NCBI GenBank assembly: GCA_963794325.1
Contig: CAWCDG010000004.1
Location: forward strand, 1,856,001 to 1,920,000
From: an uncultured delta proteobacterium
GTDB lineage: Bacteria > Desulfobacterota > Binatia > Binatales > Binataceae
DNA length: 64,000 nt
Reading direction: 5' to 3'
In this document: piece by piece, positions 11,201 through 24,809 of the stretch
Layout of the letters: every line of letters begins with the position of its first letter
Position numbering within the stretch: the first letter of the stretch is position 1
Position numbers and translations under genes: made by a program
Notes under the pieces: model-generated
Told to the model about the DNA's origin: nothing
Seen by the model: the letters and a program-made list of their open reading frames with translations, nothing else
Databases searched by the model: none

Positions 11201-11992
11201 TTAAGTTCCTTCCGGTGCCGGTAGCCCGAACACGCGCGCCGCGTTGGCGATTACTTGTGCGCCCAGGATTGTCGCATCGACGCGGCGGAGATTCGCCAGC
11301 ATTTCGAGCGTGCGAGTTACGTAGGCCGGCTCGTTGCGCTTGCCGCGATACGGCTCGGGCGCGAGATACGGCGCGTCGGTTTCGACCATCACGCGGTCGT
11401 CGGGGACGATCGACGCGGCCTCGCGAATCGGTGCGGAATTTTTGAACGTGATGATGCCGGAGAACGAGATGCAGAATCCGAGCGCGAGAAACTCGCGCGC
11501 CGCATCGGAGTCGCCGGTGAAACAGTGGATCACTCCGCCGCGCGGTGGAATGCCGGCTTCGCGCACTATCTCGATGAGCCGGCGCTCCGCGTCGCGGCAA
11601 TGAATCACGATTGGCAGGTCGAGTTCCGCGGCCAGCGCGAGATGCGCGCGCAGTGACGCTTCCTGCGCGTCCGGCGGCGAATGCATGTAATGGAAATCGA
11701 GTCCGCTCTCGCCGATGGCGACGACATTTTTCGACGCGGCGAGATCGCGCAACTGCGCGATTCGATCGGACGTGCAATCCTTCGCGTCATGTGGATGCAC
11801 GCCGACGGCGGCGAAGATATTTTCGTGACGCTCCGCGATTTCAACGGTTAGGCGGTCGTTCTCGATCGGTCCGATCGCCCCGACCGAAATGATTTGCGCG
11901 ACGCCGGCGCCGGATGCGCGTTCGATCACGGCTTCGACGTCGTCGCAGAACTTCGCATCCGCGAGATGACAGTGCGTATCGATGACCATCAA
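11201..11992 (-). CDS. tatD: TatD family DNase
   Basis: IDTHCHL, GVHPH, AIGESGLD, HCFTG, ETDAPYL. Confidence 0.95.
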   Translation of the reverse strand: MMVIDTHCHLADAKFCDDVEAVIERASGAGVAQIISVGAIGPIENDRLTVEIAERHENIFAAVGVHPHDAKDCTSDRIAQLRDLAASKNVVAIGESGLDFHYMHSPPDAQEASLRAHLALAAELDLPIVIHCRDAERRLIEIVREAGIPPRGGVIHCFTGDSDAAREFLALGFCISFSGIITFKNSAPIREAASIVPDDRVMVETDAPYLAPEPYRGKRNEPAYVTRTLEMLANLRRVDATILGAQVIANAARVFGLPAPEGT

Positions 11993-13536
11993 GGGAGCGC
12001 TTTCTTTTCGACGCGCGGGAACAGCGGGGTGGTTGGATTTACGTGATGCCCCGGCTTGATGCCTGCGCCATACGGTGCGCGCGCTTGCGCTTCATCGACG
12101 TTCAGCAGCGCGAGGATCTTTTTTGACGTGATCGGCATGAACGGCTCGAGATTGTCGGCGACGACGCGCAGCCCTTCGACCAGGTTGGCGAGGATTTGTG
12201 CCACACGAGGAAGCTGCGCGGGATCTTTCGCGAGCGTGAATGGCGACGTCGCAACAATATATTTGTTGGCGGCGTCGAGCGCTTGCCAGATGGCTTCCAG
12301 GGCGCGATTGAAGGCGAGCTCTTCGACCAGCGGCCCGACTCGCGACGGTATCGAGGCGAATGTTTCGCTGAGCGCGATGTCTAACGGGTCGCCGCCGGCG
12401 CCTGGCGTCGCGGTGATCGCGCCTTCGAAGTATCGAGCCGCCATCGTGAGCACGCGGCTGGTTAGGTTGCCTAAGTCGTTCGCGAGGTCCGAGTTGTAGC
12501 GATCGATCACGCGCTGTTCGGTAAAGTCGCCATCGAGGCCGTAGGTGTATTCACGCAGGAGGAAGAACCGCAGCACGTCAGGCCCGAGCGTTTGCTGATA
12601 GGCGACGGGATCCTGAATGGTGCCGGAGCTCTTCGACATCTTCGCGCCACCGAAATTCAGATATCCGTGAACATTCAGATGACGATAAAGCGGCAAACCG
12701 GCTGACAGCAGCATCGCGGGCCAGTAGGTCGCATGAGTCTTAAGGATGTCCTTGCCAATGAAGTGCTCTGTCACTGGTAGGATCAGTTTCAATGACTCGT
12801 CGTCAGTGTTAGGCAGCTCGCTTAGGTAGGCCCAGAAGGCATCGTACCAGACATAGGTCACGTACTTGTCGTCGAACGGCAGCTCGATACCCCAATCGAG
12901 GCGCGCCTTGGGTCGCGAGATGCATAGGTCTTCCAATGGCTCATCGAGCATCCGCAGAGCTTCGTTACGATAGCGCTCGGGTCGGATAAAATCGGGATTG
13001 TTCTTGAAGTTTGCGCGGATAGCTTCGCGATGCTTCTCGAGCTTCAGGAAGTAGTTTCCTTCCTTGATACGCTCGACGGGAGTGTTATGCACCGGGCATA
13101 TGTTGTTGGGTAGCAGTTCCTTCTCGGTATAGAAGCGCTCGCATCCGACGCAGTAGAGACCTTCATAGTCCTTGAAGTAGATGTCGCCGCATTCATAGGA
13201 GCGCGCAAGCATCTTCCGCACTAAGGCTTGGTGCGCAGGATCAGTGGTGCGCACGAAGTAGTCATAGCTCACATCGAGCGCGGCCATTCCTTCGCGAAAC
13301 ATCGCGCTGATTCGGTCGGCGAATTCCTTGGGCTTCAGGCCGGCGGCCTCAGCCGAGCGCTTGTTCTTGTCGCCGTGCTCGTCGGTGCCGGTGACGAACG
13401 TAACGTTCGATGCGCCGAGCTTGCGCCTCTGAAAACGGGCGAACGCGTCGGTCGCCAGCGCTTCGTAGGCATGGCCGACGTGAGGCGGGCCGTTGCTGTA
13501 GGCGATCGCGGTCGTGATGTGGATGCGGGTGTCCAT
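11989..13536 (-). CDS. metG: Methionine--tRNA ligase (short form, no C-terminal Trbp domain)
   Basis: HVGH, GTDEHG, YVWYDA, KMSKS; start MDTRIHITTA. Confidence 0.95.
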   Translation of the reverse strand: MDTRIHITTAIAYSNGPPHVGHAYEALATDAFARFQRRKLGASNVTFVTGTDEHGDKNKRSAEAAGLKPKEFADRISAMFREGMAALDVSYDYFVRTTDPAHQALVRKMLARSYECGDIYFKDYEGLYCVGCERFYTEKELLPNNICPVHNTPVERIKEGNYFLKLEKHREAIRANFKNNPDFIRPERYRNEALRMLDEPLEDLCISRPKARLDWGIELPFDDKYVTYVWYDAFWAYLSELPNTDDESLKLILPVTEHFIGKDILKTHATYWPAMLLSAGLPLYRHLNVHGYLNFGGAKMSKSSGTIQDPVAYQQTLGPDVLRFFLLREYTYGLDGDFTEQRVIDRYNSDLANDLGNLTSRVLTMAARYFEGAITATPGAGGDPLDIALSETFASIPSRVGPLVEELAFNRALEAIWQALDAANKYIVATSPFTLAKDPAQLPRVAQILANLVEGLRVVADNLEPFMPITSKKILALLNVDEAQARAPYGAGIKPGHHVNPTTPLFPRVEKKALP

Positions 13537-13600
13537 CAGGAGATCGAGAATAGCTTGAGTGTCAGTCTCGTGCGACTGGGGCGCCTGACTGACCCTCGGA

Positions 13601-13700
13601 TTGACTGTGTAGCGGAGCAATGGAAAAATCGTCGAAACTTTTTTCAGGGCCGATTTCACCGGCCGAGAATTTGCCAACGCGGTTGTACGCGGCGCGCGGT
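13601..13700 (+). promoter_or_regulatory. Orphan promoter + degenerate leader unit of the array (no CDS)
   Basis: TTGACT-17-AAAAAT with extended TG; TTTGCCAACGCGGTTGTACGC at 13670; no SD or ORF follows. Confidence 0.55.
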
Positions 13701-13838
13701 GCGGCGTTAAGAGTAAGCTGGCACCGAAATCGTCGTCATATTCCTGAATGCGCGAGAAGAAGGTTGCGGGCGGGGTGTCAACGACACTCCGTCCGCGTTA
13801 TTTCGCGATGCATATGACGCTTTATCTACCCAAATGAA

Positions 13839-13937
13839 TTGACTGTAGCTTCACATAGTGCGAGATTAGGCGCGCCTGAATTAGTTGACTGAGTGAAATT
13901 TGCCAACGCGGCTGTACACGCCGCGGGGAGGGGTCCT
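13839..13937 (+). promoter_or_regulatory. Array unit 1 promoter and structured leader
   Basis: TTGACT-17-GAGATT; TTTGCCAA-CGCGGC...GCCGCG-GGGAGGGG. Confidence 0.65.
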
Positions 13938-15641
13938 ATGGCAGGTTCGAATCAGCGCTTCACAATCGCGGCGTTTGCCTTGCCGCTTCTGTTTCTTGCG
14001 ATGTCCGGGATGGCGCGCGCCACCAACATTATTGTCAATACCACCGACGGTGGCAGCGACTCTTTCCCGCTGTGCACGCTGCCCGACGCAGTCACCGCGC
14101 ATAACATGCAGATGGCGACGAACGGCTGCGCCGCGGGAACCGGTCACGACACGATACTGTTCGGCGTCACCGGAAAAATCTTTATCCAGGATTCGCTCGA
14201 AATCATGAACGGTACCCTGACCATCCAGGGACCTATCTTCGGCTGCTCGGGGCTGGGGCCATGCGGCATTACCATCGACGGTGGCGGCCACGTTCAGATA
14301 ATCAGAGCGGACTCGGGCACCACGGTCTTCCTGACTACCCTGACGTTTAACCATGGATTCGCCATCACCTCTCCAATCATACCCGACACCGGAGGCGGGG
14401 CCGTATACGCAGATGGCTCCGATTTGGAGATCAACGATTGCCTCTTCGTGAACAATAAAGCGAAGGGCGCAGCGCTCCCTACAGCACAGGTTTCCGGTCC
14501 CATAGTTCCCACGGTTGGTGGTTCGGGCGGGGCTATCTACGCAAATTCCGGTAACGTCGTCATCACGAACAGCACCTTTGCGAATAATACTGCCGTGTCG
14601 TCGACTCTACCCATATCACCGTTTGTTTTGATTTCCGAAAGCGAAGGTGGCGCAATCTATGACACCGACGCCAAGATGTACATTACCAACTGCACCATCG
14701 CGGATAACACTGCGCAGGAAGGTGGCGGCTTTGCCCAGGAGGTCTCGTCTCCCCTCCCCGGCATCAAAGGTACGATCTTTCAGAGCAACACGGTCGGCAA
14801 TTGTTCAGGATTAGCTGCCGGTGACATCGGCTACAATATATCGAGCGACGATAGCTGCCCGTTCCCCCTGATTACGAGCTCTACGATGACCGACTCGCTG
14901 TTGAAGCCGCTCGCCAACAACGGCGGACCGACTGATACCTTCGCACTTGATCCGATGAGCCCGGCACTCGGCCGGATTCCGGTCGCCAACTGCACCGATC
15001 AGCAGGCGATGCCGCAGCCGCTGGGAACTGACCAACGGCTCTTTGGCCGGCCTGATCCCTACTATCCTCCCGGGTGCGACAGCGGCGCCTACGAACTCGG
15101 CGCACAACCCCCTTACGTGCTGAACAGTGACCGCGTGCAGATAGCCCGCAAGCCTACCACTACAAATTCCGATCAGGTCAACATGGGCTTGACCTTCACC
15201 GCGAATGGCGATGACTCCTGCGACCTGGGTCCGCAGGGCGATGAGGACGCGCTTAATTTTGGCGTCGGTGTCGCGCTGGTTGAGGGTACCTGCGCCAACC
15301 TTCCCAACAGCGGATTGTTTGTGAACCTATTCCCGTTTGTGGTGCATACGGTCAACAAGCAGCAATACGGAACCCTGTTCCAGACCATTGGGCCCGAGCA
15401 GATCTCGGCCAGGATGGTAGCGTTTCCGCCACAGCCGGGGGTATGCGGCGAGTGGACGCTGAATCTCGAGGTGTCAGGTCTCAACACTCCGGCCTTGGGA
15501 CTCGGCGGCAGCAATCCGTTTGCGATATTGATCACCGACTTCGTTGACGCCGAGGGATGCTTCGACATCAACAACGCAATCGTCGGCAATCAGATTCCGA
15601 TACCTGGGCACGGCGTGCGACGCGGGGTGCATCGGCGGTAG
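13938..15641 (+). CDS. Secreted beta-helix / choice-of-anchor-Q-like protein, paralog 1
   Basis: Signal peptide (ARA); CTLPDA (CSLREA-like); GGAIY/FxxN repeats; LANNGGPT...DQR...CDSGAYE; PGHGVRR tail. Confidence 0.85.
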   Translation: MAGSNQRFTIAAFALPLLFLAMSGMARATNIIVNTTDGGSDSFPLCTLPDAVTAHNMQMATNGCAAGTGHDTILFGVTGKIFIQDSLEIMNGTLTIQGPIFGCSGLGPCGITIDGGGHVQIIRADSGTTVFLTTLTFNHGFAITSPIIPDTGGGAVYADGSDLEINDCLFVNNKAKGAALPTAQVSGPIVPTVGGSGGAIYANSGNVVITNSTFANNTAVSSTLPISPFVLISESEGGAIYDTDAKMYITNCTIADNTAQEGGGFAQEVSSPLPGIKGTIFQSNTVGNCSGLAAGDIGYNISSDDSCPFPLITSSTMTDSLLKPLANNGGPTDTFALDPMSPALGRIPVANCTDQQAMPQPLGTDQRLFGRPDPYYPPGCDSGAYELGAQPPYVLNSDRVQIARKPTTTNSDQVNMGLTFTANGDDSCDLGPQGDEDALNFGVGVALVEGTCANLPNSGLFVNLFPFVVHTVNKQQYGTLFQTIGPEQISARMVAFPPQPGVCGEWTLNLEVSGLNTPALGLGGSNPFAILITDFVDAEGCFDINNAIVGNQIPIPGHGVRRGVHRR

Positions 15642-15705
15642 GAACGCTGATGCCAGGTAAAAGGCTGATGCTGTTCCGTCTGTCTATTACAGTCGGTTTG
15701 CGACG

Positions 15706-15797
15706 TTGACACTAGCTCTGTCTGATGAAACAGTGTCTGGCCTAATTAACTGACGATATTTGCCAACGCGGCTATCATGCGCTGCGGGGAGGGGTCC
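15706..15797 (+). promoter_or_regulatory. Array unit 2 promoter and structured leader
   Basis: TTGACA-17-AACAGT; same leader motif at 15759. Confidence 0.65.
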
Positions 15798-17474
15798 ATG
15801 GCAATTTCGGTTCGGCGCTTTATGGTCGCGGCAGTTGTATTGCCGCTTTTTCTGCTGATGATATCGGGGCGGGCGCGCGCCGATCTTATCTTCGTCACTA
15901 CGCTCGATGGCAACAGCGATCCAGGGGCCTGCACGCTGCCCGATGCAATCGGATCGGCCAACACCGGCATACCCGAAGGCGGCTGCGTTATTTTACCGGT
16001 ATCCGGAGCTGATCAGATAGTCATCGGTCTAACCGGCACGATTTTCGTTGCCGCTGGCCGGCTTCCGCTGACCATTTCCGACACGGCTCTGGAGATCACC
16101 ACTTACGCCGACGGTCCGGTTGTGATCGACGCCGGTCTCAATGAGGTGGTGCCATCCGGGGGGATAATGTCGGTCACCTCACTCAACAAGTTTCTCAAGC
16201 TCACCAATCTGACGTTCGCGCACGGAAACTCCGAATTCGGCGGCGCCTTATACTCAGATACTGGCGGAGATGTGGATATCAAAGACTGCCTGTTTGTGAA
16301 CAATCAAACTACCCCTCAGAATAGTGTCTTAAGCGCGGGTGGGGCAATCTACGCGCATGCTGGCAGGATGGAGATCACCAACAGCACCTTTTACGAGAAT
16401 GACGCGCTGAAATACACCGCCACCATCGGTGGCGCTATCTTTGTCGACACTGCAGCGACGCTGAAGCTCACCAACTCGACCTTCGAGCATAACTACGCAC
16501 AAACCGGTAGTGCCATATACAATCAGGGAACCGCCGATGTTAAAGGTAACATCTTCGCCGACCACCTCGAGAAGGCGGGCACTGGCGTAGTGTCGCCTCT
16601 CGGCAACTGCGCCGGACTCACTGCCACGCCGGTGACCGACGAAAATTACAACGTCTCGGTCGACAATAGCTGCGGCTTTACCGCCGCTTCGAGCGTGAGC
16701 AACCAAACTGCTGCTCAGGTTGATCTGGATCCCGCAGGACTGGCGAACAATGGCGGGCCGTCGTTTACCGTCGCGATTCAACCCGGCAGTGTCGCGCTCG
16801 CCCGTATTCCGGTCGCGGATTGCACCGAACAGGATTCACACATGACTCCGCTGGGAACCGACCAGCGGCTCTTTGCCCGGCCCGATCCCCTCAACCTCTC
16901 CGCCTGCGACAGCGGCGCGTTCGAGTTTGGAGCGCTAGGGCCTTACACGCTGAATAGTCACCGGGTGCAGATAGCGCGAAACTCGAATATTGCAAATAGC
17001 GATATGGTCAACATCGGGATGACTTTCACGGCGAACGGCGATCCCGACTGCGACCTGGGAGTCGGTGGTGACGAAGACGCGCTGAATTATGGCGTCGGCA
17101 TCGGGCTCTTTCAGGGTACCTGCGCCTCGCTTCCATACGACGGACTGTTCCTGGTGCTGAGTCCTTTCGTGGTGCATACGGTTAATATGGAGCAATACGG
17201 AACTCTGTATCAGACGTTTGGACCGGTGACAGTCTCGGCCAGGATGGTAGCGTTCCCGCCGCAGATGGGGGTATGCGGCGAATGGACGCTGAACCTCGAA
17301 GTCGGTGGCCTCAATACCAAAAGCAGCAGCGTAAATCTTGGAGGCAGCAATCCGTTTGCGTTGCTAATCAGCGACCAGTACGACGTCGAGAGTTGCTTCG
17401 ACATCACCAATGCAATCGTCGGCAATCAGATCCCGACGCCGGGCCATGGCGTGAGGCGCGGGGTGCGGCGCTAG
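15798..17474 (+). CDS. Secreted beta-helix / choice-of-anchor-Q-like protein, paralog 2
   Basis: Same architecture as paralog 1; ATG follows GGGAGGGG. Confidence 0.85.
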   Translation: MAISVRRFMVAAVVLPLFLLMISGRARADLIFVTTLDGNSDPGACTLPDAIGSANTGIPEGGCVILPVSGADQIVIGLTGTIFVAAGRLPLTISDTALEITTYADGPVVIDAGLNEVVPSGGIMSVTSLNKFLKLTNLTFAHGNSEFGGALYSDTGGDVDIKDCLFVNNQTTPQNSVLSAGGAIYAHAGRMEITNSTFYENDALKYTATIGGAIFVDTAATLKLTNSTFEHNYAQTGSAIYNQGTADVKGNIFADHLEKAGTGVVSPLGNCAGLTATPVTDENYNVSVDNSCGFTAASSVSNQTAAQVDLDPAGLANNGGPSFTVAIQPGSVALARIPVADCTEQDSHMTPLGTDQRLFARPDPLNLSACDSGAFEFGALGPYTLNSHRVQIARNSNIANSDMVNIGMTFTANGDPDCDLGVGGDEDALNYGVGIGLFQGTCASLPYDGLFLVLSPFVVHTVNMEQYGTLYQTFGPVTVSARMVAFPPQMGVCGEWTLNLEVGGLNTKSSSVNLGGSNPFALLISDQYDVESCFDITNAIVGNQIPTPGHGVRRGVRR

Positions 17475-17505
17475 GAACGGCCTGAGTTCAGAACTGGTTC
17501 GATTT

Positions 17506-17546
17506 GCGGGCGAGATGCCAATAACGTCTCGCCCGCTCTATTTTTT
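17506..17546 (+). terminator. Intrinsic terminator, repeated after paralogs 2-4
   Basis: GCGGGCGAGA...TCTCGCCCGC hairpin + T-tract. Confidence 0.75.
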
Positions 17547-17578
17547 ACCTGGATGGTTGTTCCTTCTACTTTAAAGAA

Positions 17579-17681
17579 TTGACAGTGGGTCGCCGTAGTG
17601 GGAGACTGCGCGAGACACGCATCTAGCAATCTACTGACGATATTTGCCAACGCGGCCATCATGCGCCGCGGGGAGGGGTCC
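17579..17681 (+). promoter_or_regulatory. Array unit 3 promoter and structured leader
   Basis: TTGACA-17-GAGACT; leader motif at 17643. Confidence 0.65.
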
Positions 17682-19364
17682 ATGGCAATTTCGGATCGGC
17701 GCTTTATGGTTGCGGCACTTGTACTGCCGCTTTTTCTCCTCGTGATATCAGGGCGCGCGCGCGCCGATCTTATCTTCGTCGATACGCTCGATGGCAACAG
17801 CGATCCAGGGGCCTGCACGCTGCCCGATGCAATCGGATCGGCCAACAGCGCCATACCGGAAGGTGGCTGTTTCATTATCCCGGCACCCGGAGCTGATCAG
17901 ATACTAATCGGCCTGACCGGCACGATCTCCGTGGACGCTGCCCGGCTTCCGCTGATTATTTCCGACGAGGCTCTGGAGATCACCACTTACGGCGATGGTC
18001 CGGTTGTGATCAACGGCGCTGCCAAGGCGGGGGTCGACGGCGGGACGATGGTTGTTGAGCCGGACAACAAGTTTCTCAAGCTCACCCTGCTGACCTTCGC
18101 GAACGGGTTCGCCGAATACGGCGGCGCCATATTCTCACAGTCCGGCGGAGATGTGGATATTAAGGAATGCCTCTTCGAGAACAACACTGCGGAGTATTCC
18201 AGCGGTGGCGAGGGTGGGGCAGTCTTCGAGCAAGCCGGCAGGATGGAGATCACCAACAGCACCTTTTTTGGGAATGACGCCCTGAAATACTCCGGCACCG
18301 AGGGTGGCGCGGTCTATGTCAACCCATCCACGACCCTGAAGCTCACTAATTCCACTTTCGAGCATAACTACGCCAAATCGGGTAGTGCCGTGTTCAATAA
18401 CGACGGAACTGTCGACGCTAAGGGCAACATCTTCGCGGACCACCTTGAGGGTGCGGGTACCGGTATAGTGTCGCCGCTCGGCAACTGTGCCGGAACTGCT
18501 TCACCACCTGTTACCGACGAGAACTACAACGTCTCAGTCGACAATAGCTGCGGCTTCACCGCCGCTTCGAGCAAGAGCAACCAAACTGCTGCTGAGGTTG
18601 ATCTGGATCCCGCAGGATTGGCGAACAATGGCGGGCCGTCGTTTACCGTCGCGCTTCACGACACCAGCAGCGTCGCGTACGGCCTGATTCCGGTCGCTAG
18701 CTGCACCGAACAGGATTCACACATGACTCCGCTGGGAACCGACCAGCGGCTCTTTGCCCGGCCCGATGCCGGTGATCCTGATTTCTGCGACAGCGGCGCA
18801 TACGAGCTTGGAGCGCTAGGAGCCTACACGCTGGAAAGTCACAGGGTGCAGATAGCGCGAAACCCGGCTACCGGAAATAGCGATAAGGTCAACATAGGGA
18901 TGACCTTCGTCGCGAACGGCGACCCCGACTGCGACCTGGGTATGTATGGTGATGAAGACGCGCTGAACTATGGCGTCGGTATCGGGCTCTTTCAGGGCAC
19001 CTGCGCCTCGCTTCCGTATAACGGACTGTTCCTGGTCCTGAGTCCTTTCGTAGTGCATACGGTTAATAAGGAGCAATACGGAACTCTGTTCCAAACCAAT
19101 GGAACGGTGACGGTCTCTGCCAGGATGGTCTCGCTGTTCGCGTCGCCGCCACCTCCGGGAATATGCGGCGCATGGACGCTGAACCTCGAGGTTGCCGGAC
19201 TCAATACCAATAGCGCCAGCGTAAATCTGCCGGGCACCAATCCGTTTGCGCTGCTAATCAGCGACGGCTCCGACGCCGAGAGTTGCTTCGACATCACCAA
19301 TGCAATCGTCGGCAATCAGATACCCACGCCGGGCCATGGCGTGAGGCGCGTCCGGCGGCGCTAG
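17682..19364 (+). CDS. Secreted beta-helix / choice-of-anchor-Q-like protein, paralog 3
   Basis: Same architecture as paralog 1. Confidence 0.85.
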   Translation: MAISDRRFMVAALVLPLFLLVISGRARADLIFVDTLDGNSDPGACTLPDAIGSANSAIPEGGCFIIPAPGADQILIGLTGTISVDAARLPLIISDEALEITTYGDGPVVINGAAKAGVDGGTMVVEPDNKFLKLTLLTFANGFAEYGGAIFSQSGGDVDIKECLFENNTAEYSSGGEGGAVFEQAGRMEITNSTFFGNDALKYSGTEGGAVYVNPSTTLKLTNSTFEHNYAKSGSAVFNNDGTVDAKGNIFADHLEGAGTGIVSPLGNCAGTASPPVTDENYNVSVDNSCGFTAASSKSNQTAAEVDLDPAGLANNGGPSFTVALHDTSSVAYGLIPVASCTEQDSHMTPLGTDQRLFARPDAGDPDFCDSGAYELGALGAYTLESHRVQIARNPATGNSDKVNIGMTFVANGDPDCDLGMYGDEDALNYGVGIGLFQGTCASLPYNGLFLVLSPFVVHTVNKEQYGTLFQTNGTVTVSARMVSLFASPPPPGICGAWTLNLEVAGLNTNSASVNLPGTNPFALLISDGSDAESCFDITNAIVGNQIPTPGHGVRRVRRR

Positions 19365-19394
19365 GAACGGCCTGAGCTCATAACTGGCTCAATT

Positions 19395-19433
19395 GCGGGC
19401 GAGATGCCTATGGCGTCTCGCCCGCTCCATTTT
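19395..19433 (+). terminator. Intrinsic terminator (array unit 3)
   Basis: GCGGGCGAGATGCC-tat-GGCGTCTCGCCCGC + T-rich tail. Confidence 0.7.
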
Positions 19434-19446
19434 CTACCTTAAAGAA

Positions 19447-19546
19447 TTGACAGTGGGTCGCCGTAGTGGGAGACTGCGCGCAACACGCTTCTACCAATTT
19501 ACTGATAATTTGCCAACGCGGCTGTACGCGCCGCGGGGAGGGGTCC
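19447..19546 (+). promoter_or_regulatory. Array unit 4 promoter and structured leader
   Basis: TTGACA-17-GAGACT identical to unit 3; leader motif at 19509. Confidence 0.65.
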
Positions 19547-21292
19547 ATGGCAGATCGGAATCGGCGGTATACGGTTGCGGCAATTGCGCTGCCGTTTTTT
19601 TTAATGGTGATGTCGGGACTGGCGCGCGCCAATCTTATCTTTGTCACTTCTCTCGATGGCGACACCGATGCAGGCGCATGCACCCTGCCCGATGCAATCG
19701 GATCGGCCAACACCGGGACCCCTGAGGGCGGCTGTTTTATTTTATTGGCACCCGGAGCTGATCAGATAGTCGTCGCCCTTACCGGTACGATCTTCGTGAA
19801 CGCTGCCCGGCTTCCGCTGACTATTTCCGACGAGGTTCTGGAGATCAGCACCTTCGGCGACGGCCCGGTTGTGATCGACGGCGGCTCACATGGCATTCCA
19901 CAGGGTGGGATAATGTATGTCTCATCGCTGAACAAGTTTCTCAAGCTGAGCAACCTGACGTTCGCGCACGGCCTCGCCGAACAGGGCGGCGCCATATTCT
20001 CAGAAACTGGCGGAGATGTGGATATTAAGGACGACCTTTTCGTGGACAATACCGCGGAGGTTACTCCCGCGCTCTGCGTTATCCCGATCTTAGGTGGCGA
20101 GGGTGGGGCGATTTTCGCCGCTGCTGGCAGGATGGAGGTCACCAACAGCACCTTTTACGAGAATGATGCGCTGCAATACAACGAAACTTACGGTGGCGCC
20201 ATCTACGTCGCGGGCGAACCGTTCTGCTCCCCGGCCGGGGATGCCGCGTGTGTCGGTGTCATCGATGGCATCTTGGGTGCGAGCTTGAAGCTCACCAACG
20301 CCACCTTCGAGCATAACTACGCAAAATTCGGCAGCGCCATCTACAATGCGGGCACCGCCGACGTTAAAGGCACAATCTTCGCGGACCACCTTGATAAGGC
20401 AGGCACTGGTGTTGTGTCGCCGGTCGGCAACTGCGCCGGGCTCAATTCACCGCCGGTGACCGACGAGAACTACAACGTCTCAGTCGATAACAGCTGCGCC
20501 TTTACCGCCGCTTCGAGCAAGAACAACCAAACTGCTGCTCAGGTTGATCTCGATCCCCTGGGATTGCAGAACAATGGCGGGCCGTCATTTACCGTCGCGC
20601 TTCACGACACCAGCAGCGTCGCGTACGGTCTGATTCCGGTCGCAGATTGCACCGAACAGGATTCACACATGACTCCGCTGGGAACCGACCAGCGGCTCTT
20701 TGGGCGTCCCGATTCCGGTGATCCCGATGCCTGCGACAGCGGCGCATACGAGCTTGGGGCGTTAGGGGCTTACACGCTAAATAGTGACAGGGTGCAGGTA
20801 GCGCGAAAGCCGACTGCCGCAAATAGCGACATGGTCAACATCGGGATGACCTTCACCGCGAACGGCGACCCGGATTGCGACCTCGACGAAGACGCGCTGA
20901 ATTCTGGCGTCAATATCGAGCTCTTCCAGGGCACCTGCGCCTCGCTTCCGCTTAACGGACTGTTGGTGGAACTGAATCCTTTCGTCGTGCATACGGTTAA
21001 TAAGGAGCAATACGGAACTTTCTACCAAACGTATGGACCGGTGACAGTCTCGGCCAGGATGGTAGCGTTTCCGCCACAGATGGGGGTATGCGGCGAATGG
21101 ACGCTGAACCTCGAAGTCGGTGGCCTTAATACCAAGAGCCCGAACGTAAATCTGCCGGGCACCAATCCGTTTGCGCTGATAATCTTCGACTCGGCCGACG
21201 ATGGCCAGAGCTGCTTTGACATCAACAATGCGATCGTCGGCAATCAGATCCCGATACCGGGCCATGGCGTAAGGCGCGGGGTGCGACGATAG
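19547..21292 (+). CDS. Secreted beta-helix / choice-of-anchor-Q-like protein, paralog 4
   Basis: Same architecture plus two Cys-containing loop insertions. Confidence 0.85.
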   Translation: MADRNRRYTVAAIALPFFLMVMSGLARANLIFVTSLDGDTDAGACTLPDAIGSANTGTPEGGCFILLAPGADQIVVALTGTIFVNAARLPLTISDEVLEISTFGDGPVVIDGGSHGIPQGGIMYVSSLNKFLKLSNLTFAHGLAEQGGAIFSETGGDVDIKDDLFVDNTAEVTPALCVIPILGGEGGAIFAAAGRMEVTNSTFYENDALQYNETYGGAIYVAGEPFCSPAGDAACVGVIDGILGASLKLTNATFEHNYAKFGSAIYNAGTADVKGTIFADHLDKAGTGVVSPVGNCAGLNSPPVTDENYNVSVDNSCAFTAASSKNNQTAAQVDLDPLGLQNNGGPSFTVALHDTSSVAYGLIPVADCTEQDSHMTPLGTDQRLFGRPDSGDPDACDSGAYELGALGAYTLNSDRVQVARKPTAANSDMVNIGMTFTANGDPDCDLDEDALNSGVNIELFQGTCASLPLNGLLVELNPFVVHTVNKEQYGTFYQTYGPVTVSARMVAFPPQMGVCGEWTLNLEVGGLNTKSPNVNLPGTNPFALIIFDSADDGQSCFDINNAIVGNQIPIPGHGVRRGVRR

Positions 21293-21322
21293 GAACGGCC
21301 TGAGTTCATAACTGGCTCGACT

Positions 21323-21361
21323 GCGGGCGGGACGCCAATAACGTCTCGCCCGCGCTATTTT
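21323..21361 (+). terminator. Intrinsic terminator (array unit 4)
   Basis: GCGGGCGGGACG...CGTCTCGCCCGC + TATTTT. Confidence 0.65.
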
Positions 21362-21383: not shown

Positions 21384-22229
21384 CTACTGGGGGCGCGACG
21401 CGACCAGATCTTCGAGGGTTACTTCGACGACGCCGCCGTCTTCTTCGCGCTGAATCAGGACGGTCTGCTTGAGGATATTCTGGCGGACCACCTTGCCGTC
21501 GCCCTTAACGCATTGCACGCGCTTGCCGAGGTTCGGTAGTGCTCGCTTGAGTTCGACGTAAGTGGCGTACTCGTAGCGCAGGCAGCACTTCAGGCGCCCG
21601 CACATCCCGGCCAGCCGCGACGGATTGAGCGCGAGGCCTTGCTCACGCGCCATCTTGACCGTGACCGCCTCGAAGTCGCGCAGCCAGCTCGAGCAGCATA
21701 GCTCGCGTCCGCACGGACCCAGCCCGCCAGTGACCTTGGTCTCATCGCGCGCGCCAATCTGTTTCATCTCGACCCGCACGCGCAGCGTGTTGGCGAGATC
21801 GCGCACCAGGTCGCGGAAATCGACGCGCCCCTCGGCGACGAAATAAAAGGTGACCTTGCGCCCGTCAAATGTGTAGTCGGCGTTAACCAGCTTCATCTGG
21901 ATGCGCCGCTCGCGGATCCGCTCGATACACATGCGGCGCGCGTTCGCCTCCCGCGTGAGGTTTTCCTTTTCGAGGTAAAAGTCGTTGTCGCTCGCGATCC
22001 GGATGATCGGACGCAACTGCGAAAGATCGATCGTCTGCGCGGGTTCATGCGGCTCGATCTCGACGGTGCCGACGCGCGCGCCCGCCTCGCTCTCGACCAG
22101 GACGCGCTCACCGCGCCGCAGCGGCCGGTCGCCGGCCAGAAAATTATACAGATGACCAGTCTGCTGCAGACTGACCGCAATAATCTTCGGCAGCGACGGC
22201 GCGCCTTCAAATGGATCGATATCTGACAC
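21384..22229 (-). CDS. ricT: PSP1/RicT (YaaT) family protein
   Basis: RVDFRDLV, GPCGRELCC, GMCGRLKCCL. Confidence 0.92.
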   Translation of the reverse strand: MSDIDPFEGAPSLPKIIAVSLQQTGHLYNFLAGDRPLRRGERVLVESEAGARVGTVEIEPHEPAQTIDLSQLRPIIRIASDNDFYLEKENLTREANARRMCIERIRERRIQMKLVNADYTFDGRKVTFYFVAEGRVDFRDLVRDLANTLRVRVEMKQIGARDETKVTGGLGPCGRELCCSSWLRDFEAVTVKMAREQGLALNPSRLAGMCGRLKCCLRYEYATYVELKRALPNLGKRVQCVKGDGKVVRQNILKQTVLIQREEDGGVVEVTLEDLVASRPQ

Positions 22230-22235
22230 TATCTA

Positions 22236-23315
22236 TTACTCACCCCGCATCGCATGCCCGGCGATGCTCCACCAATTCTCCGCCTGCATGCGCGGATTGG
22301 CGTTATCCCCAACCGCCGCGCTGGCGCGCACCGCAGCGTCGATACATTTCGCGATCGCATCTACACTAAGACTATCCGCCAGGCTCACCAAGCGCGACTG
22401 CGCCTCGGGCGGGAACGCGACGAAGTCCGTCTTCAGCAGCTTGTAGCATAGTATTTCTTCGAGCAGCCTGGCGAGCAGCTCGAAGTTGCCGGCAGCCGCG
22501 TCGCGATTGGCAAAAAACTCCTGCGCGATCGATTGCGCGCGCGCAAAGTCGATCGATTTGCCATGGCTAAGAGCGTCGATCAGCTCTTTCATCGGCGGCT
22601 CGTCGCCGTCTGACAGCGCGATCGCATTTGCAGCGCTGCCTCGCGCCAGCAACGCAAGCGCACTCGCGCGGGCTTTGTCGATGACGCCATGGGTGGCGAG
22701 TATCTGTTCGATCTCAGCGACCTGCAGCGCTGGAAATCGCACCGTCCGCGTCCGCGATCGAACCGTGTCGAGCAGCGCCCGCTCGCTGGCCGACACCATG
22801 ATGATGATCGCGTGGCCGGGCGGCTCCTCGAGCGTCTTCAGCAGCGCGTTCTGCGCGGGTTCACCGAGCACCTCGGCATCGTCGATGATTGCCATGCGAA
22901 CCGACGATCGCGACGGCCGGATTCCGAGTCGCGCAATCAGATCGCGGACCTGATCAATCAAAACTTCAGAACGGCCAACCGGCTTCGACACGTATGTGAA
23001 ATCCGGATGCACGCCCGTCGCAATTTGCACGCATGCCGAACAGCAATCGCAATGCGGCGCGTCGGCGTCGCCGGCGCGCGCACGAGTGCGCTCAGTCTGC
23101 GGCGCAAGGCGTACGGGGCATCGCGCTGTCGTGCAGCAAAAATTCTCGCCGGGCGATCGCTCGCACATCATCGCGTGTACCAGGCTGGTCGCGACGATCG
23201 CCTTGCCGACGCCGCGCGGCCCCGAGAAGAGATAGGCATGCGATGGACGCGCGCGAATCTCGGCGAGCAACCGCGCTGCGATTTCGCGATGGCCAAGGAT
23301 CGAACTTATCGGCAT
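22236..23315 (-). CDS. holB: DNA polymerase III delta-prime subunit
   Basis: HAYLFSGPRGVGK, HPDF, NALLKTLEEPP, TVRSR; lies downstream of tmk. Confidence 0.9.
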   Translation of the reverse strand: MPISSILGHREIAARLLAEIRARPSHAYLFSGPRGVGKAIVATSLVHAMMCERSPGENFCCTTARCPVRLAPQTERTRARAGDADAPHCDCCSACVQIATGVHPDFTYVSKPVGRSEVLIDQVRDLIARLGIRPSRSSVRMAIIDDAEVLGEPAQNALLKTLEEPPGHAIIIMVSASERALLDTVRSRTRTVRFPALQVAEIEQILATHGVIDKARASALALLARGSAANAIALSDGDEPPMKELIDALSHGKSIDFARAQSIAQEFFANRDAAAGNFELLARLLEEILCYKLLKTDFVAFPPEAQSRLVSLADSLSVDAIAKCIDAAVRASAAVGDNANPRMQAENWWSIAGHAMRGE

Positions 23316-23325
23316 GGCGATTCAA

Positions 23326-23967
23326 TCATCGGCGAGCGAGCATCTCGCCGACTGCCCGGCGAATGTCGGCGGTGACGGCGGCCACCGGTCGGTCGGCGTC
23401 GATCACGACGACGCGCGCCGGTTCGGCTTTCGCGATCGCCAGAAAACCGTCCCGCACCTTGCGATGGAACTCCGCGCGCTCGCCCTCGAAGCGATCGGAT
23501 CCGCGGCCGGTACCTTTCGCACGCGCGCGAGTGCGCTCTAGTCCCGTCTCGACTTTCAGATCCAGCACGATCGTGAGATCAGGCGTTACGTTATCGGTCG
23601 CGAGCCGGTTCAACTCGCCGAGCACTTTGAGATCGACGCCGCGTGCGTAACCCTGGTAGGCCGTAGTCGAGTCGGAATAGCGATCGGAAATCACGATCTC
23701 GCCGGATGCCAACGCGGGCCGCAGTTTCTCGCGCACATGCTGCGCGCGATCGGCAAGCACCAGCAGCAGTTCCGCGGCGACGTCCAGTGAAACCGCAGGA
23801 TCGAGAAAAATCGCGCGGATCGTTTCGCCGGCGCGGGTCCCGCCCGGCTCGTGCGTGACCGTTACTACGTGACCATCTTTGCGTAGCGCGTCGCCGAGAA
23901 TCGCGGCCTGCGTCGTCTTGCCACTTCCTTCGACGCCTTCGAGCGTGATGAATACACCGGCCGGCAT
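23326..23967 (-). CDS. tmk: Thymidylate kinase
   Basis: FITLEGVEGSGKTT, EPGGT, DRYSDST.AYQG. Confidence 0.97.
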   Translation of the reverse strand: MPAGVFITLEGVEGSGKTTQAAILGDALRKDGHVVTVTHEPGGTRAGETIRAIFLDPAVSLDVAAELLLVLADRAQHVREKLRPALASGEIVISDRYSDSTTAYQGYARGVDLKVLGELNRLATDNVTPDLTIVLDLKVETGLERTRARAKGTGRGSDRFEGERAEFHRKVRDGFLAIAKAEPARVVVIDADRPVAAVTADIRRAVGEMLARR

Positions 23968-23969
23968 TG

Positions 23970-24809
23970 CTATCGGCTAAAATACCAGTGCGCCAATTGT
24001 GGCTGAAAGAGCGCGAACACGCCGGCGGCCAGCGCCAGGTACGGGCCGAACGGAACTTCGGTTTTCAGAATCGAGACGTCGGCTTCCTCTGGATCGGTAG
24101 CGGGTTCGCCGAGCGGACTGGGCGAAGTCGAACCGCCGCCAGTTAGCGCGAATGCAATTCCGCCCACTGCGCCGATTACCGAACCAAAAAACATCGTGAA
24201 GAAAACTCCCGGCCAGCCGAGAAATCCGCCCACCATCCCGAGCAGCCACACGTCGCCAAGGCCGACGCCCTCGCGCCCGCGCACCAGTTGGTAGAAGTAG
24301 CCGGTGCCCCACAGGACGCCGCCGCCGACGATGATTCCGATAAGCGAACTCTTCCAGCCGACGTCGGGCATCATCGTCGCCGCCGCGATAAATCCCACCA
24401 GCGTGCCGGGCCAGGTGATGATGTTCGGGATGAGCCGCCAGTCGTAGTCGATGATCGCGACGATCCACAGCGCGGCACATAAGACGAAGCGGGCGATCGC
24501 GTCGGGCAGAGGAAACGCGAAGTAGAGATACAGCGCGATGAGCGCCAGTCCGAGTTCGGCGAGGAAATGCCGGAACGGAATCGGCGCGCCGCACATCACG
24601 CATCGCCCTTTCAATCCGAGATAGGCCAGAATCGGGATGTTCGCCCACCATGGAATCGCGCGCTCGCAACTCTCGCAATACGATCGCGGCGTGACGATCG
24701 AAAGATCGCGTGGCAGCCGATAACCAACCATGCAGACGAAGCTGCCGACGCACGCGCCGAACACGAACGCAATCGCGCCGCCGATTCCGGTGGGCATGTC
24801 CATTGTCAT
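23970..24809 (-). CDS. pilD: Prepilin peptidase (A24A)
   Basis: GSF, two CxxC, NIPIL, GLGD, PFGPYL. Confidence 0.92.
   Translation of the reverse strand: MTMDMPTGIGGAIAFVFGACVGSFVCMVGYRLPRDLSIVTPRSYCESCERAIPWWANIPILAYLGLKGRCVMCGAPIPFRHFLAELGLALIALYLYFAFPLPDAIARFVLCAALWIVAIIDYDWRLIPNIITWPGTLVGFIAAATMMPDVGWKSSLIGIIVGGGVLWGTGYFYQLVRGREGVGLGDVWLLGMVGGFLGWPGVFFTMFFGSVIGAVGGIAFALTGGGSTSPSPLGEPATDPEEADVSILKTEVPFGPYLALAAGVFALFQPQLAHWYFSR

Follow-up and report, generated by a model that had tools for sequence, protein, structure and literature searches.

The window analysed here is a 64,000-nt stretch of contig CAWCDG010000004.1, from an uncultured delta proteobacterium, and all positions are given in its numbering. 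It contains an array of four paralogous genes, all on the plus strand, that encode secreted choice-of-anchor-Q / right-handed beta-helix proteins and that are each preceded by the same short leader, a real, new and genus-restricted cis-acting element of the 5' untranslated region (5' UTR). Gene 1 (13938..15641, 567 aa) was identified by domain matches, and gene 2 (15798..17474, 558 aa), gene 3 (17682..19364, 560 aa) and gene 4 (19547..21292, 581 aa) by domain matches together with paralog comparison. The four proteins match right-handed beta-helix and PMP-repeat models as well as the choice-of-anchor-Q domain, and a signal-peptide-like N-terminal region was read from the translations of all four open reading frames (ORFs). 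Three further leader-bearing paralogs are located elsewhere in the genome (C4:98.8 kb, C4:97.1 kb and C4:1.932 Mb), as are two more distant relatives that have no leader. Despite a protein identity to gene 3 of 41-78% among the paralogs, the leader core is more than 90% conserved. A full-text literature search for 'choice-of-anchor Q' returned no paper.

The leader and its four copies

Read from its 5' end, the leader consists of a conserved box (AAUUUGCCA, the 5' box), a hairpin of the form CGCGGC-loop-GCCGCG (P2), a Shine-Dalgarno sequence (SD, GGGAGGGG) that in the window lies 3-4 nt 5' of each of the four start codons, UCC, and AUG GCA. A sequence-only reading of this DNA had placed such a motif before all four genes, and a search of the window bore this out, with exact matches to TTTGCCAACGCGG at 13899, 15759, 17643 and 19509; that reading had counted four copies and overlooked that the 5' half recurs exactly a fifth time, at 13670. 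When up to two mismatches were allowed, nine matches to TTTGCCAACGCGG were found in the window against a shuffle mean of 3.23, and none of 100 shuffles gave nine. The downstream block GCGGGGAGGGGTCC matched exactly at 13923, 15784, 17668 and 19533, which like the exact matches to TTTGCCAACGCGG is far beyond shuffle expectation. As had been described, P2 keeps pairing although its loops differ (TGTACAC, TATCATGC, CATCATGC and TGTACGC in genes 1 to 4), and the sole stem change among these copies, in gene 2, yields a G-U pair. The complementarity of UUGCCA in the 5' box to UGGCA(A/G) over the start codon (P1) was likewise found, being longest in gene 1 (9 bp), shorter in gene 4 (8 bp) and shortest in genes 2 and 3 (6 bp each), and all four start codons (13938, 15798, 17682 and 19547) are followed by GCA as codon 2.

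Motif matches, predicted folds and covariance-model matches together delimit the four leader cores. The core of gene 1 spans 13897..13947 (79 bits), with the 5' box AAUUUGCCA at 13897-13905, P2 formed by 13907-13912 with 13920-13925 around a loop at 13913-13919, the SD GGGAGGGG at 13926-13933, AUG at 13938 and the 3' strand of P1, UGGCAGGUU, at 13939-13947. That of gene 2 (15757..15804, 69.6 bits) has its 5' box at 15759-15765, P2 at 15767-15772 with 15781-15786, including the one G-U pair, and a loop at 15773-15780, followed by the SD at 15787-15794, AUG at 15798 and the P1 3' strand at 15799-15804. The corresponding parts of the gene 3 core (17641..17688, 74.1 bits) are the 5' box at 17643-17649, P2 at 17651-17656 with 17665-17670, the loop at 17657-17664, the SD at 17671-17678, AUG at 17682 and the P1 3' strand at 17683-17688. 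Gene 4 (core 19507..19555) gave the top covariance-model match, 88.6 bits, with the 5' box at 19509-19515, P2 at 19517-19522 with 19530-19535, the loop at 19523-19529, the SD at 19536-19543, AUG at 19547 and the P1 3' strand UGGCAGAU at 19548-19555. For all four copies, the minimum-free-energy fold of the short leader contained P1, P2 and a GGA/UCC mini-stem of 3 bp, and the SD in the predicted folds was either unpaired or held by this mini-stem alone. A weak covariance-model match elsewhere in the window (24541-24586, E 0.36) was dropped.

The P2 loops of genes 2 and 3 hold an in-frame ATG (15777-15779 and 17661-17663) that would extend the ORF by 7 codons. Genes 1 and 4 and most homologs lack it, so it is probably unused.

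Conservation of the leader and of its two helices

A covariance model built from 25 leaders found the element in 19 of the 151 genomes searched in the family, essentially in a single genus, and a census of that genus gave 85 copies in 25 of 47 genomes, so that about half of its species-level genomes carry the leader. No credible copy was found in other genera by this search; a match upstream of what is, from its ORF translation, an HtrA-like protease (L117, E 0.0013) was dropped as chance, and a G+C-rich one (L118, E 0.007) as doubtful. The copies examined precede the same secreted choice-of-anchor-Q beta-helix family. Leader and protein family occurred together in 18 of the 41 genomes of the genus that were searched for both and were both missing from 20, with the leader alone in two and the protein alone in one, where the protein-family match is distant. 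In species-representative genomes the close homologs have the leader and distant ones (~30-36% identity) do not. A metagenome scan, in which the query was an 18-mer from the SD-start block so that the 3' box was fixed by design, returned 104 stretches, and 58 of the 80 listed were strong leader matches. Two truncated or decayed copies (L136 and L153:205) were excluded from the position scan and the individual folds, and five weak or truncated metagenomic rows were excluded from the reading of the 5' core and kept in the P2 covariation set. Rows L108 and L123 come from one unpublished genome (G142), and no conclusion rests on them.

The leader matched no Rfam family at the gathering score or at E up to 1, in agreement with the earlier statement that no known riboswitch class could be recognised. 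No cis-regulatory RNA for Binatota was found in the titles and abstracts of the part of the matching Binatota/Binatus literature that was covered.

P2 is a 6-8 bp G+C-rich hairpin that abuts the SD GGGAGGGG; its loop varies in length and sequence, and the stem register is shifted in some copies. In the genus census (85 rows) 94.4% of its cells were paired, and double changes were seen at five of the six pairs, a count equalled by 1 of 500 shuffles; the further pair types and the covariation score were each equalled by none of 500. The metagenome set gave a similar picture, with 97.7% of cells paired and double changes at four of six pairs (equalled by 1 of 500 shuffles). When leaders were folded individually, a hairpin of at least 5 bp lay between box and SD in 62 of 65, with a median of -10.1 kcal/mol. 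G-U cells outnumbered A-C cells in P2 by 61:6, and because of this asymmetry P2 acts as sense-strand RNA rather than as a DNA palindrome or in an antisense transcript. Judged by its substitutions, P2 is an RNA structure under selection. The adjoining SD is conserved too, with the consensus base present in 73-82 of 85 copies at each of eight alignment columns.

Apart from the 5' box, the start-codon region has no conserved long-range complement. When the 40 upstream nt were scanned for helices with the first 45 nt of coding sequence, P1 alone reached 5 bp or more with every position paired in at least 70% of copies, at 82-97% pairing per position. Its six-pair core was intact in 70 of the 85 copies and had five pairs in another 13, and 53 of 65 leaders contained P1 in their minimum-free-energy fold. 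G-U and A-C cells in P1 stood at 134:11. Of 500 shuffles, 9 equalled the share of paired cells and 24 the covariation score, and native 5' and 3' partners gave -16.67 kcal/mol against -16.08 for swapped ones (equalled by 30 of 2000 permutations). Codon 2 was GCA in 71 and GCG in 7 of the 85 copies and never GCC or GCU, and both third bases seen in this Ala codon, A and G, can pair with the opposing U; the GCA share of Ala codons in this genome is 11.6% internally and 22% at codon 2. Among 49 distinct metagenomic leaders, where the 3' box was fixed, the 5' core was intact in 45 and showed a wobble-compatible change in two of the other four, and the flanks of the box varied around the invariant core.

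Several results weigh against P1 as a helix that is formed and selected. Covariation supported P2 in two sets and did not support P1: for P1 it was not significant, double changes at two pairs were equalled by 179 of 500 shuffles, and the 10 further pair types by 241 of 500. The two favourable shuffle measures, paired share and covariation score, are, according to the tool, reached by unconstrained alignments in 5-25% of cases. The complementarity that was kept in 70 copies had at least one broken core pair in the remaining 15 of 85, and most of these breaks were uncompensated, whether on the 5' side (e.g. UUGACA, UUACCA, UUGCAG) or on the 3' side (e.g. AUGCC in three copies, GUGAC, AUGGG, AUGGU). 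Codon 2 was not GCN in seven of 85 copies, and only L152 was read as compensated, by a helix, CUGAC/GUCAG, that is restored through a shift of register. P2 and not P1 was predicted when RNAalifold was run on the wider alignment. Fold stability was unremarkable, with non-significant z-scores (-0.94, -0.10, 0.01 and 0.01 for the window copies against dinucleotide shuffles), and the predicted occupancy of P1 in the full UTR, about 0.97 in genes 1 and 4, was only 0.02-0.60 in genes 2 and 3. Conservation of the P1 3' strand needs no cause at the RNA level, because AUG and an Ala codon already fix that strand; homolog L099, which has neither 5' box nor P2, still has AUGGCGGAUC, and other synonymous sites of the signal-peptide region are conserved too (major-codon fraction 0.53-0.86 against 0.89 at codon 2). 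From these alignments P1 is conserved complementarity rather than demonstrated pairing, and we give its formation in vivo roughly even odds.

Two other helices were considered and rejected. An extension of P1 into codons 4-8, hinted at by some folds, was absent from the position scan, and a swap of the flanks alone was equalled by 605 of 2000 permutations. A control or alternative helix between the P2 3' strand and CGGCG at +16 was paired at 88.6% and was equalled by 220 and by 180 of 500 shuffles.

Some homologous leaders show variations of their own. Several copies in other genomes (L030 2494-, L032 53-, L025 4451- and L124) have indels of 1-2 nt within codons 3-6, with the surrounding nucleotides conserved, and one such insertion is common to the two separate loci L030 and L032. 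These indels put the AUG out of frame with the protein, and the copies could be pseudogenes, assembly errors or genes with unusual starts. A subset (e.g. L107, L120 and L110) has an extra hairpin, P0, with the form CGCCAG-AGUURGUUNA-CUGGUG between promoter and 5' box; 60.1% of its cells were paired, without covariation (67 rows), and none was seen in the window copies.

Transcription signals and surroundings of the array

Promoter-like sites precede all four window copies on the plus strand: 13839..13867 for gene 1 (TTGACT, 17 nt, (TGc)GAGATT), 15706..15734 for gene 2 (TTGACA, 17 nt, (TGa)AACAGT), and 17579..17607 and 19447..19475 for genes 3 and 4 (both TTGACA, 17 nt, (TGg)GAGACT). Of 67 homologous leaders, 59 had a predicted sigma70-like promoter (TTGACN, 16-18 nt, NANNNT) upstream, and an extended -10 TG was present in 45 of these. 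The distance from the predicted -10 box to the 5' box was mostly 31-41 nt, with a mode of 36, and 12 nt in one copy; from this spacing the predicted 5' UTR is about 70 nt long and the box lies about 29 nt from the predicted start of transcription. A terminator-hairpin scan placed an intrinsic terminator after gene 2 (17506..17536, plus strand) and similar ones after genes 3 and 4 (19395-19425 and 21322-21354, plus strand). Since terminators stand after genes 2, 3 and 4, each gene would form its own transcription unit.

A conserved and strongly basic tail, ...GHGVRR..RR and stop (e.g. 17436-17474, 19326-19364 and 21254-21292), forms the end of all paralogs, and near-identical terminator hairpins follow this tail in genes 2-4 and in a ghost copy upstream of gene 1. 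With a shared leader at the 5' end, and the basic tail and terminator at the 3' end, both gene ends are conserved more than the middle. The ghost copy (13601..13812, plus strand), recognised by alignment to the 3' ends of genes 2-4, accounts for the fifth match: it has a promoter at 13601-13629, the 5' box at 13670-13682 and the first P2 bases, and this 5' half is joined to a lost paralog's final codons, stop and terminator (13765-13797). It apparently arose through a deletion between short CGCGG-type repeats, and the leader motif thus persists in one deletion remnant.

The array is flanked on one side by a methionyl-tRNA-synthetase-like (metG-like) gene (11989-13677, minus strand) and on the other by a block on the minus strand (21384-24809) with PSP1, DNA polymerase III delta' (holB), thymidylate kinase (tmk) and prepilin peptidase. 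The four-gene array looks like an insertion among housekeeping genes, and no regulator gene adjoins it among the neighbours inspected (metG-like, PSP1, holB and tmk).

Possible modes of action

The best-supported reading of these data is that of a family-wide leader that acts at the RNA level and sets translation initiation, and possibly also mRNA life. As a specific form of it we tentatively favour, at somewhat less than an even chance, a fold-back leader in which the 5' box pairs with the start region and gates initiation on all paralogs. The box would fold back onto the U-G of AUG and codons 2-3 to form the 6-9 bp of P1, with P2 as a scaffold that places it beside the initiation region. The junction closed by P1 and P2 would leave the SD exposed, or held weakly by the GGA/UCC stem, and the start codon paired, and P1 may in this way lower or gate 30S initiation alike on every paralog. 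Opening of P1 could come from a ribosome bound at the exposed SD (a standby 30S) or from a trans-acting factor that reads the invariant box. A more far-reaching version, a new class of translational riboregulator in which a three-way junction of P1, P2 and GGA/UCC locks the start codon and a dedicated trans factor reads AAUUUGCCA, we regard as unlikely. The sequence-only reading had proposed a novel cis-acting translational switch; the conserved cis element in the mRNA leader and its selected hairpin stand, but switching as such found no support and P1 showed no covariation. A translational switch is plausible, and it is put forward here as a proposal and not as a finding, because there is no sign of a ligand, the element is of small size and its genes code for secreted proteins of a structural type.

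The main rival to the fold-back leader is a constitutive stabiliser or enhancer, in which P2, a strong SD and the A/U-rich box as a landing site protect the mRNA from 5'-dependent decay, keep the SD single-stranded and give a high steady output of abundant secreted proteins, with P1 incidental; this has a lesser though appreciable chance of being correct. Such a stabiliser requires no more than P2 and the SD, the parts that are proven, and P2 is the sole helix with solid covariation. The very strong SD, the near-consensus -35, the extended -10 and the strong terminator of each gene also fit, and there are precedents: a 5' stem-loop along with the binding of ribosomes, not translation, reportedly stabilises the mRNA in the ompA 5' UTR and the aprE leader (PMC7509114), and a strong SD in hbs is reported to block RNase J1 (PMC5737220). 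However, judged from the predicted promoter, P2 would not lie at the 5' end of the transcript, the -10 ending mostly about 36 nt before the box, and a stabiliser leaves the near-invariant GCCA of the box and its unique complementarity to the start region unexplained. The conservation of the box could instead mark the binding site of a trans regulator, an RNA-binding protein or a small RNA acting as on the rpoS leader, on a P2 scaffold and with or without P1, and such a regulator would control all the paralogs together. The box is conserved beyond what a helix arm needs, as the metagenomic cores with their varying flanks indicate, it is common to all paralogs, and its distance from the promoter is fixed within mostly 31-41 nt. 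Yet the genome (85% complete) has no exact complement of the 11-nt box outside the leaders, matches with one mismatch look random, the array has no regulator gene beside it and no binding factor is known, so that we consider a trans regulator rather improbable. Binding of a transcription factor to the inverted repeats as DNA, the alternative raised with the original reading, would fit the 6-N7-6 geometry of CGCGGC-N7-GCCGCG downstream of a promoter and a second sigma70-like match (CTGACG-17-TATCAT) that overlaps the motif in gene 2. Such an operator or promoter element is disfavoured by the 61:6 ratio of G-U to A-C in P2, which is expected of sense RNA and not of a DNA palindrome, by the freedom of the loop in length and sequence with shifts of stem register in some copies, and by the lack of conservation of the overlapping -10-like loop (other loops include GAAA, CCAAG and TGTACGC), and we regard it as very unlikely.

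Both kinds of gating named in the sequence-only reading besides a protein, thermal and ligand-dependent, fared poorly. P1 is short, contains G-U pairs and occludes AUG, as a thermometer helix that melts to free the start codon would, and thermometers reportedly show little sequence conservation between classes (PMC11182007). No melting of P1 was predicted, however: its probability fell only from 0.98 to 0.93 over 10-55 C in genes 1 and 4 and rose in genes 2 and 3. Neither a U-run nor a ROSE motif pairs with the SD, the Rfam thermometer models (fourU and ROSE) gave no match at E up to 1, and the genes are neither heat-shock nor virulence genes, which leaves an RNA thermometer with a very small chance. 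A metabolite-binding riboswitch would agree with a conserved structured leader outside the Rfam families, but the leader has two short helices only, its conserved unpaired run is the SD itself, it serves one secreted beta-helix family in one genus and not metabolic or transport genes, and the alternative helix through which it might switch showed no covariation (220 and 180 of 500 shuffles, as above); it is extremely improbable. It would be nearly as surprising if the leader had no function of its own and its similarity came from recent duplication or gene conversion among paralogs. The genes do lie in tandem arrays, genes 3 and 4 have similar upstream regions across the whole intergenic length, and a recombination remnant adjoins the array. 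On the other hand, the leader is kept across 25 species-level genomes and in paralogs at 41-54% protein identity, the sequence from promoter to box diverges, and P2 has compensatory changes.

Fold-back leaders that occlude a start are exemplified by the rpoS leader, which is opened by small RNAs, and by the alternative structures of lambda cIII. The present leader resembles them in having an upstream 5'-UTR arm that is complementary to the start region and conserved in sequence, but differs in that pairing would be confined to the U-G of AUG and codons 2-3, leaving the SD largely open. In further contrast to the rpoS type, the 11-nt complement search of this genome found no activating small RNA, and the pairing lacks covariation. 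With RNA thermometers such as fourU, ROSE and the cyanobacterial hsp17 element it shares a short G-U-containing helix in the initiation region and a small size; it differs in having no U-run or ROSE motif on the SD, no predicted melting and no stress genes downstream. Like the ompA and aprE leaders (PMC7509114), it combines a stem-loop and a strong ribosome-binding site with a secreted or surface protein and a strong promoter and terminator, but here the hairpin abuts the SD and lies off the predicted 5' end, and there is an extra invariant 5' box. Like the cis-regulatory leaders in Rfam, it is a structured motif that is conserved ahead of a single gene family, although it matches none of those families. 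The leader works like structured initiation-region leaders and belongs to no described family testable here.

Should the riboregulator version prove correct, a single post-transcriptional switch would serve a family with as many as nine secreted beta-helix proteins per genome, in a phylum that is uncultured. The leader also offers a compact testable case (~50 nt, two helices) of how a start codon may be gated with the SD left open. The element marks a co-regulated secreted-protein family in about half of one genus's species-level genomes. If it is merely a stabiliser or enhancer, it would be an ordinary, though unannotated, leader.

Transcription attenuation by a leader hairpin with a U-run was not indicated, as P2 leads into GGGAGGGG. 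A terminator-like hairpin, GCGGCA-N7-UGCCGC followed by a U-run, is located about 30 nt into each coding sequence (13968-13986, 15828-15846, 17712-17730 and 19577-19595). In 65 homologs 79.5% of its cells were paired, yet it showed no covariation, and it may be a by-product of Ala-Ala...Leu-Pro-Phe/Leu coding; the U-run in this region of gene 4 reads TTT TTT TTA.

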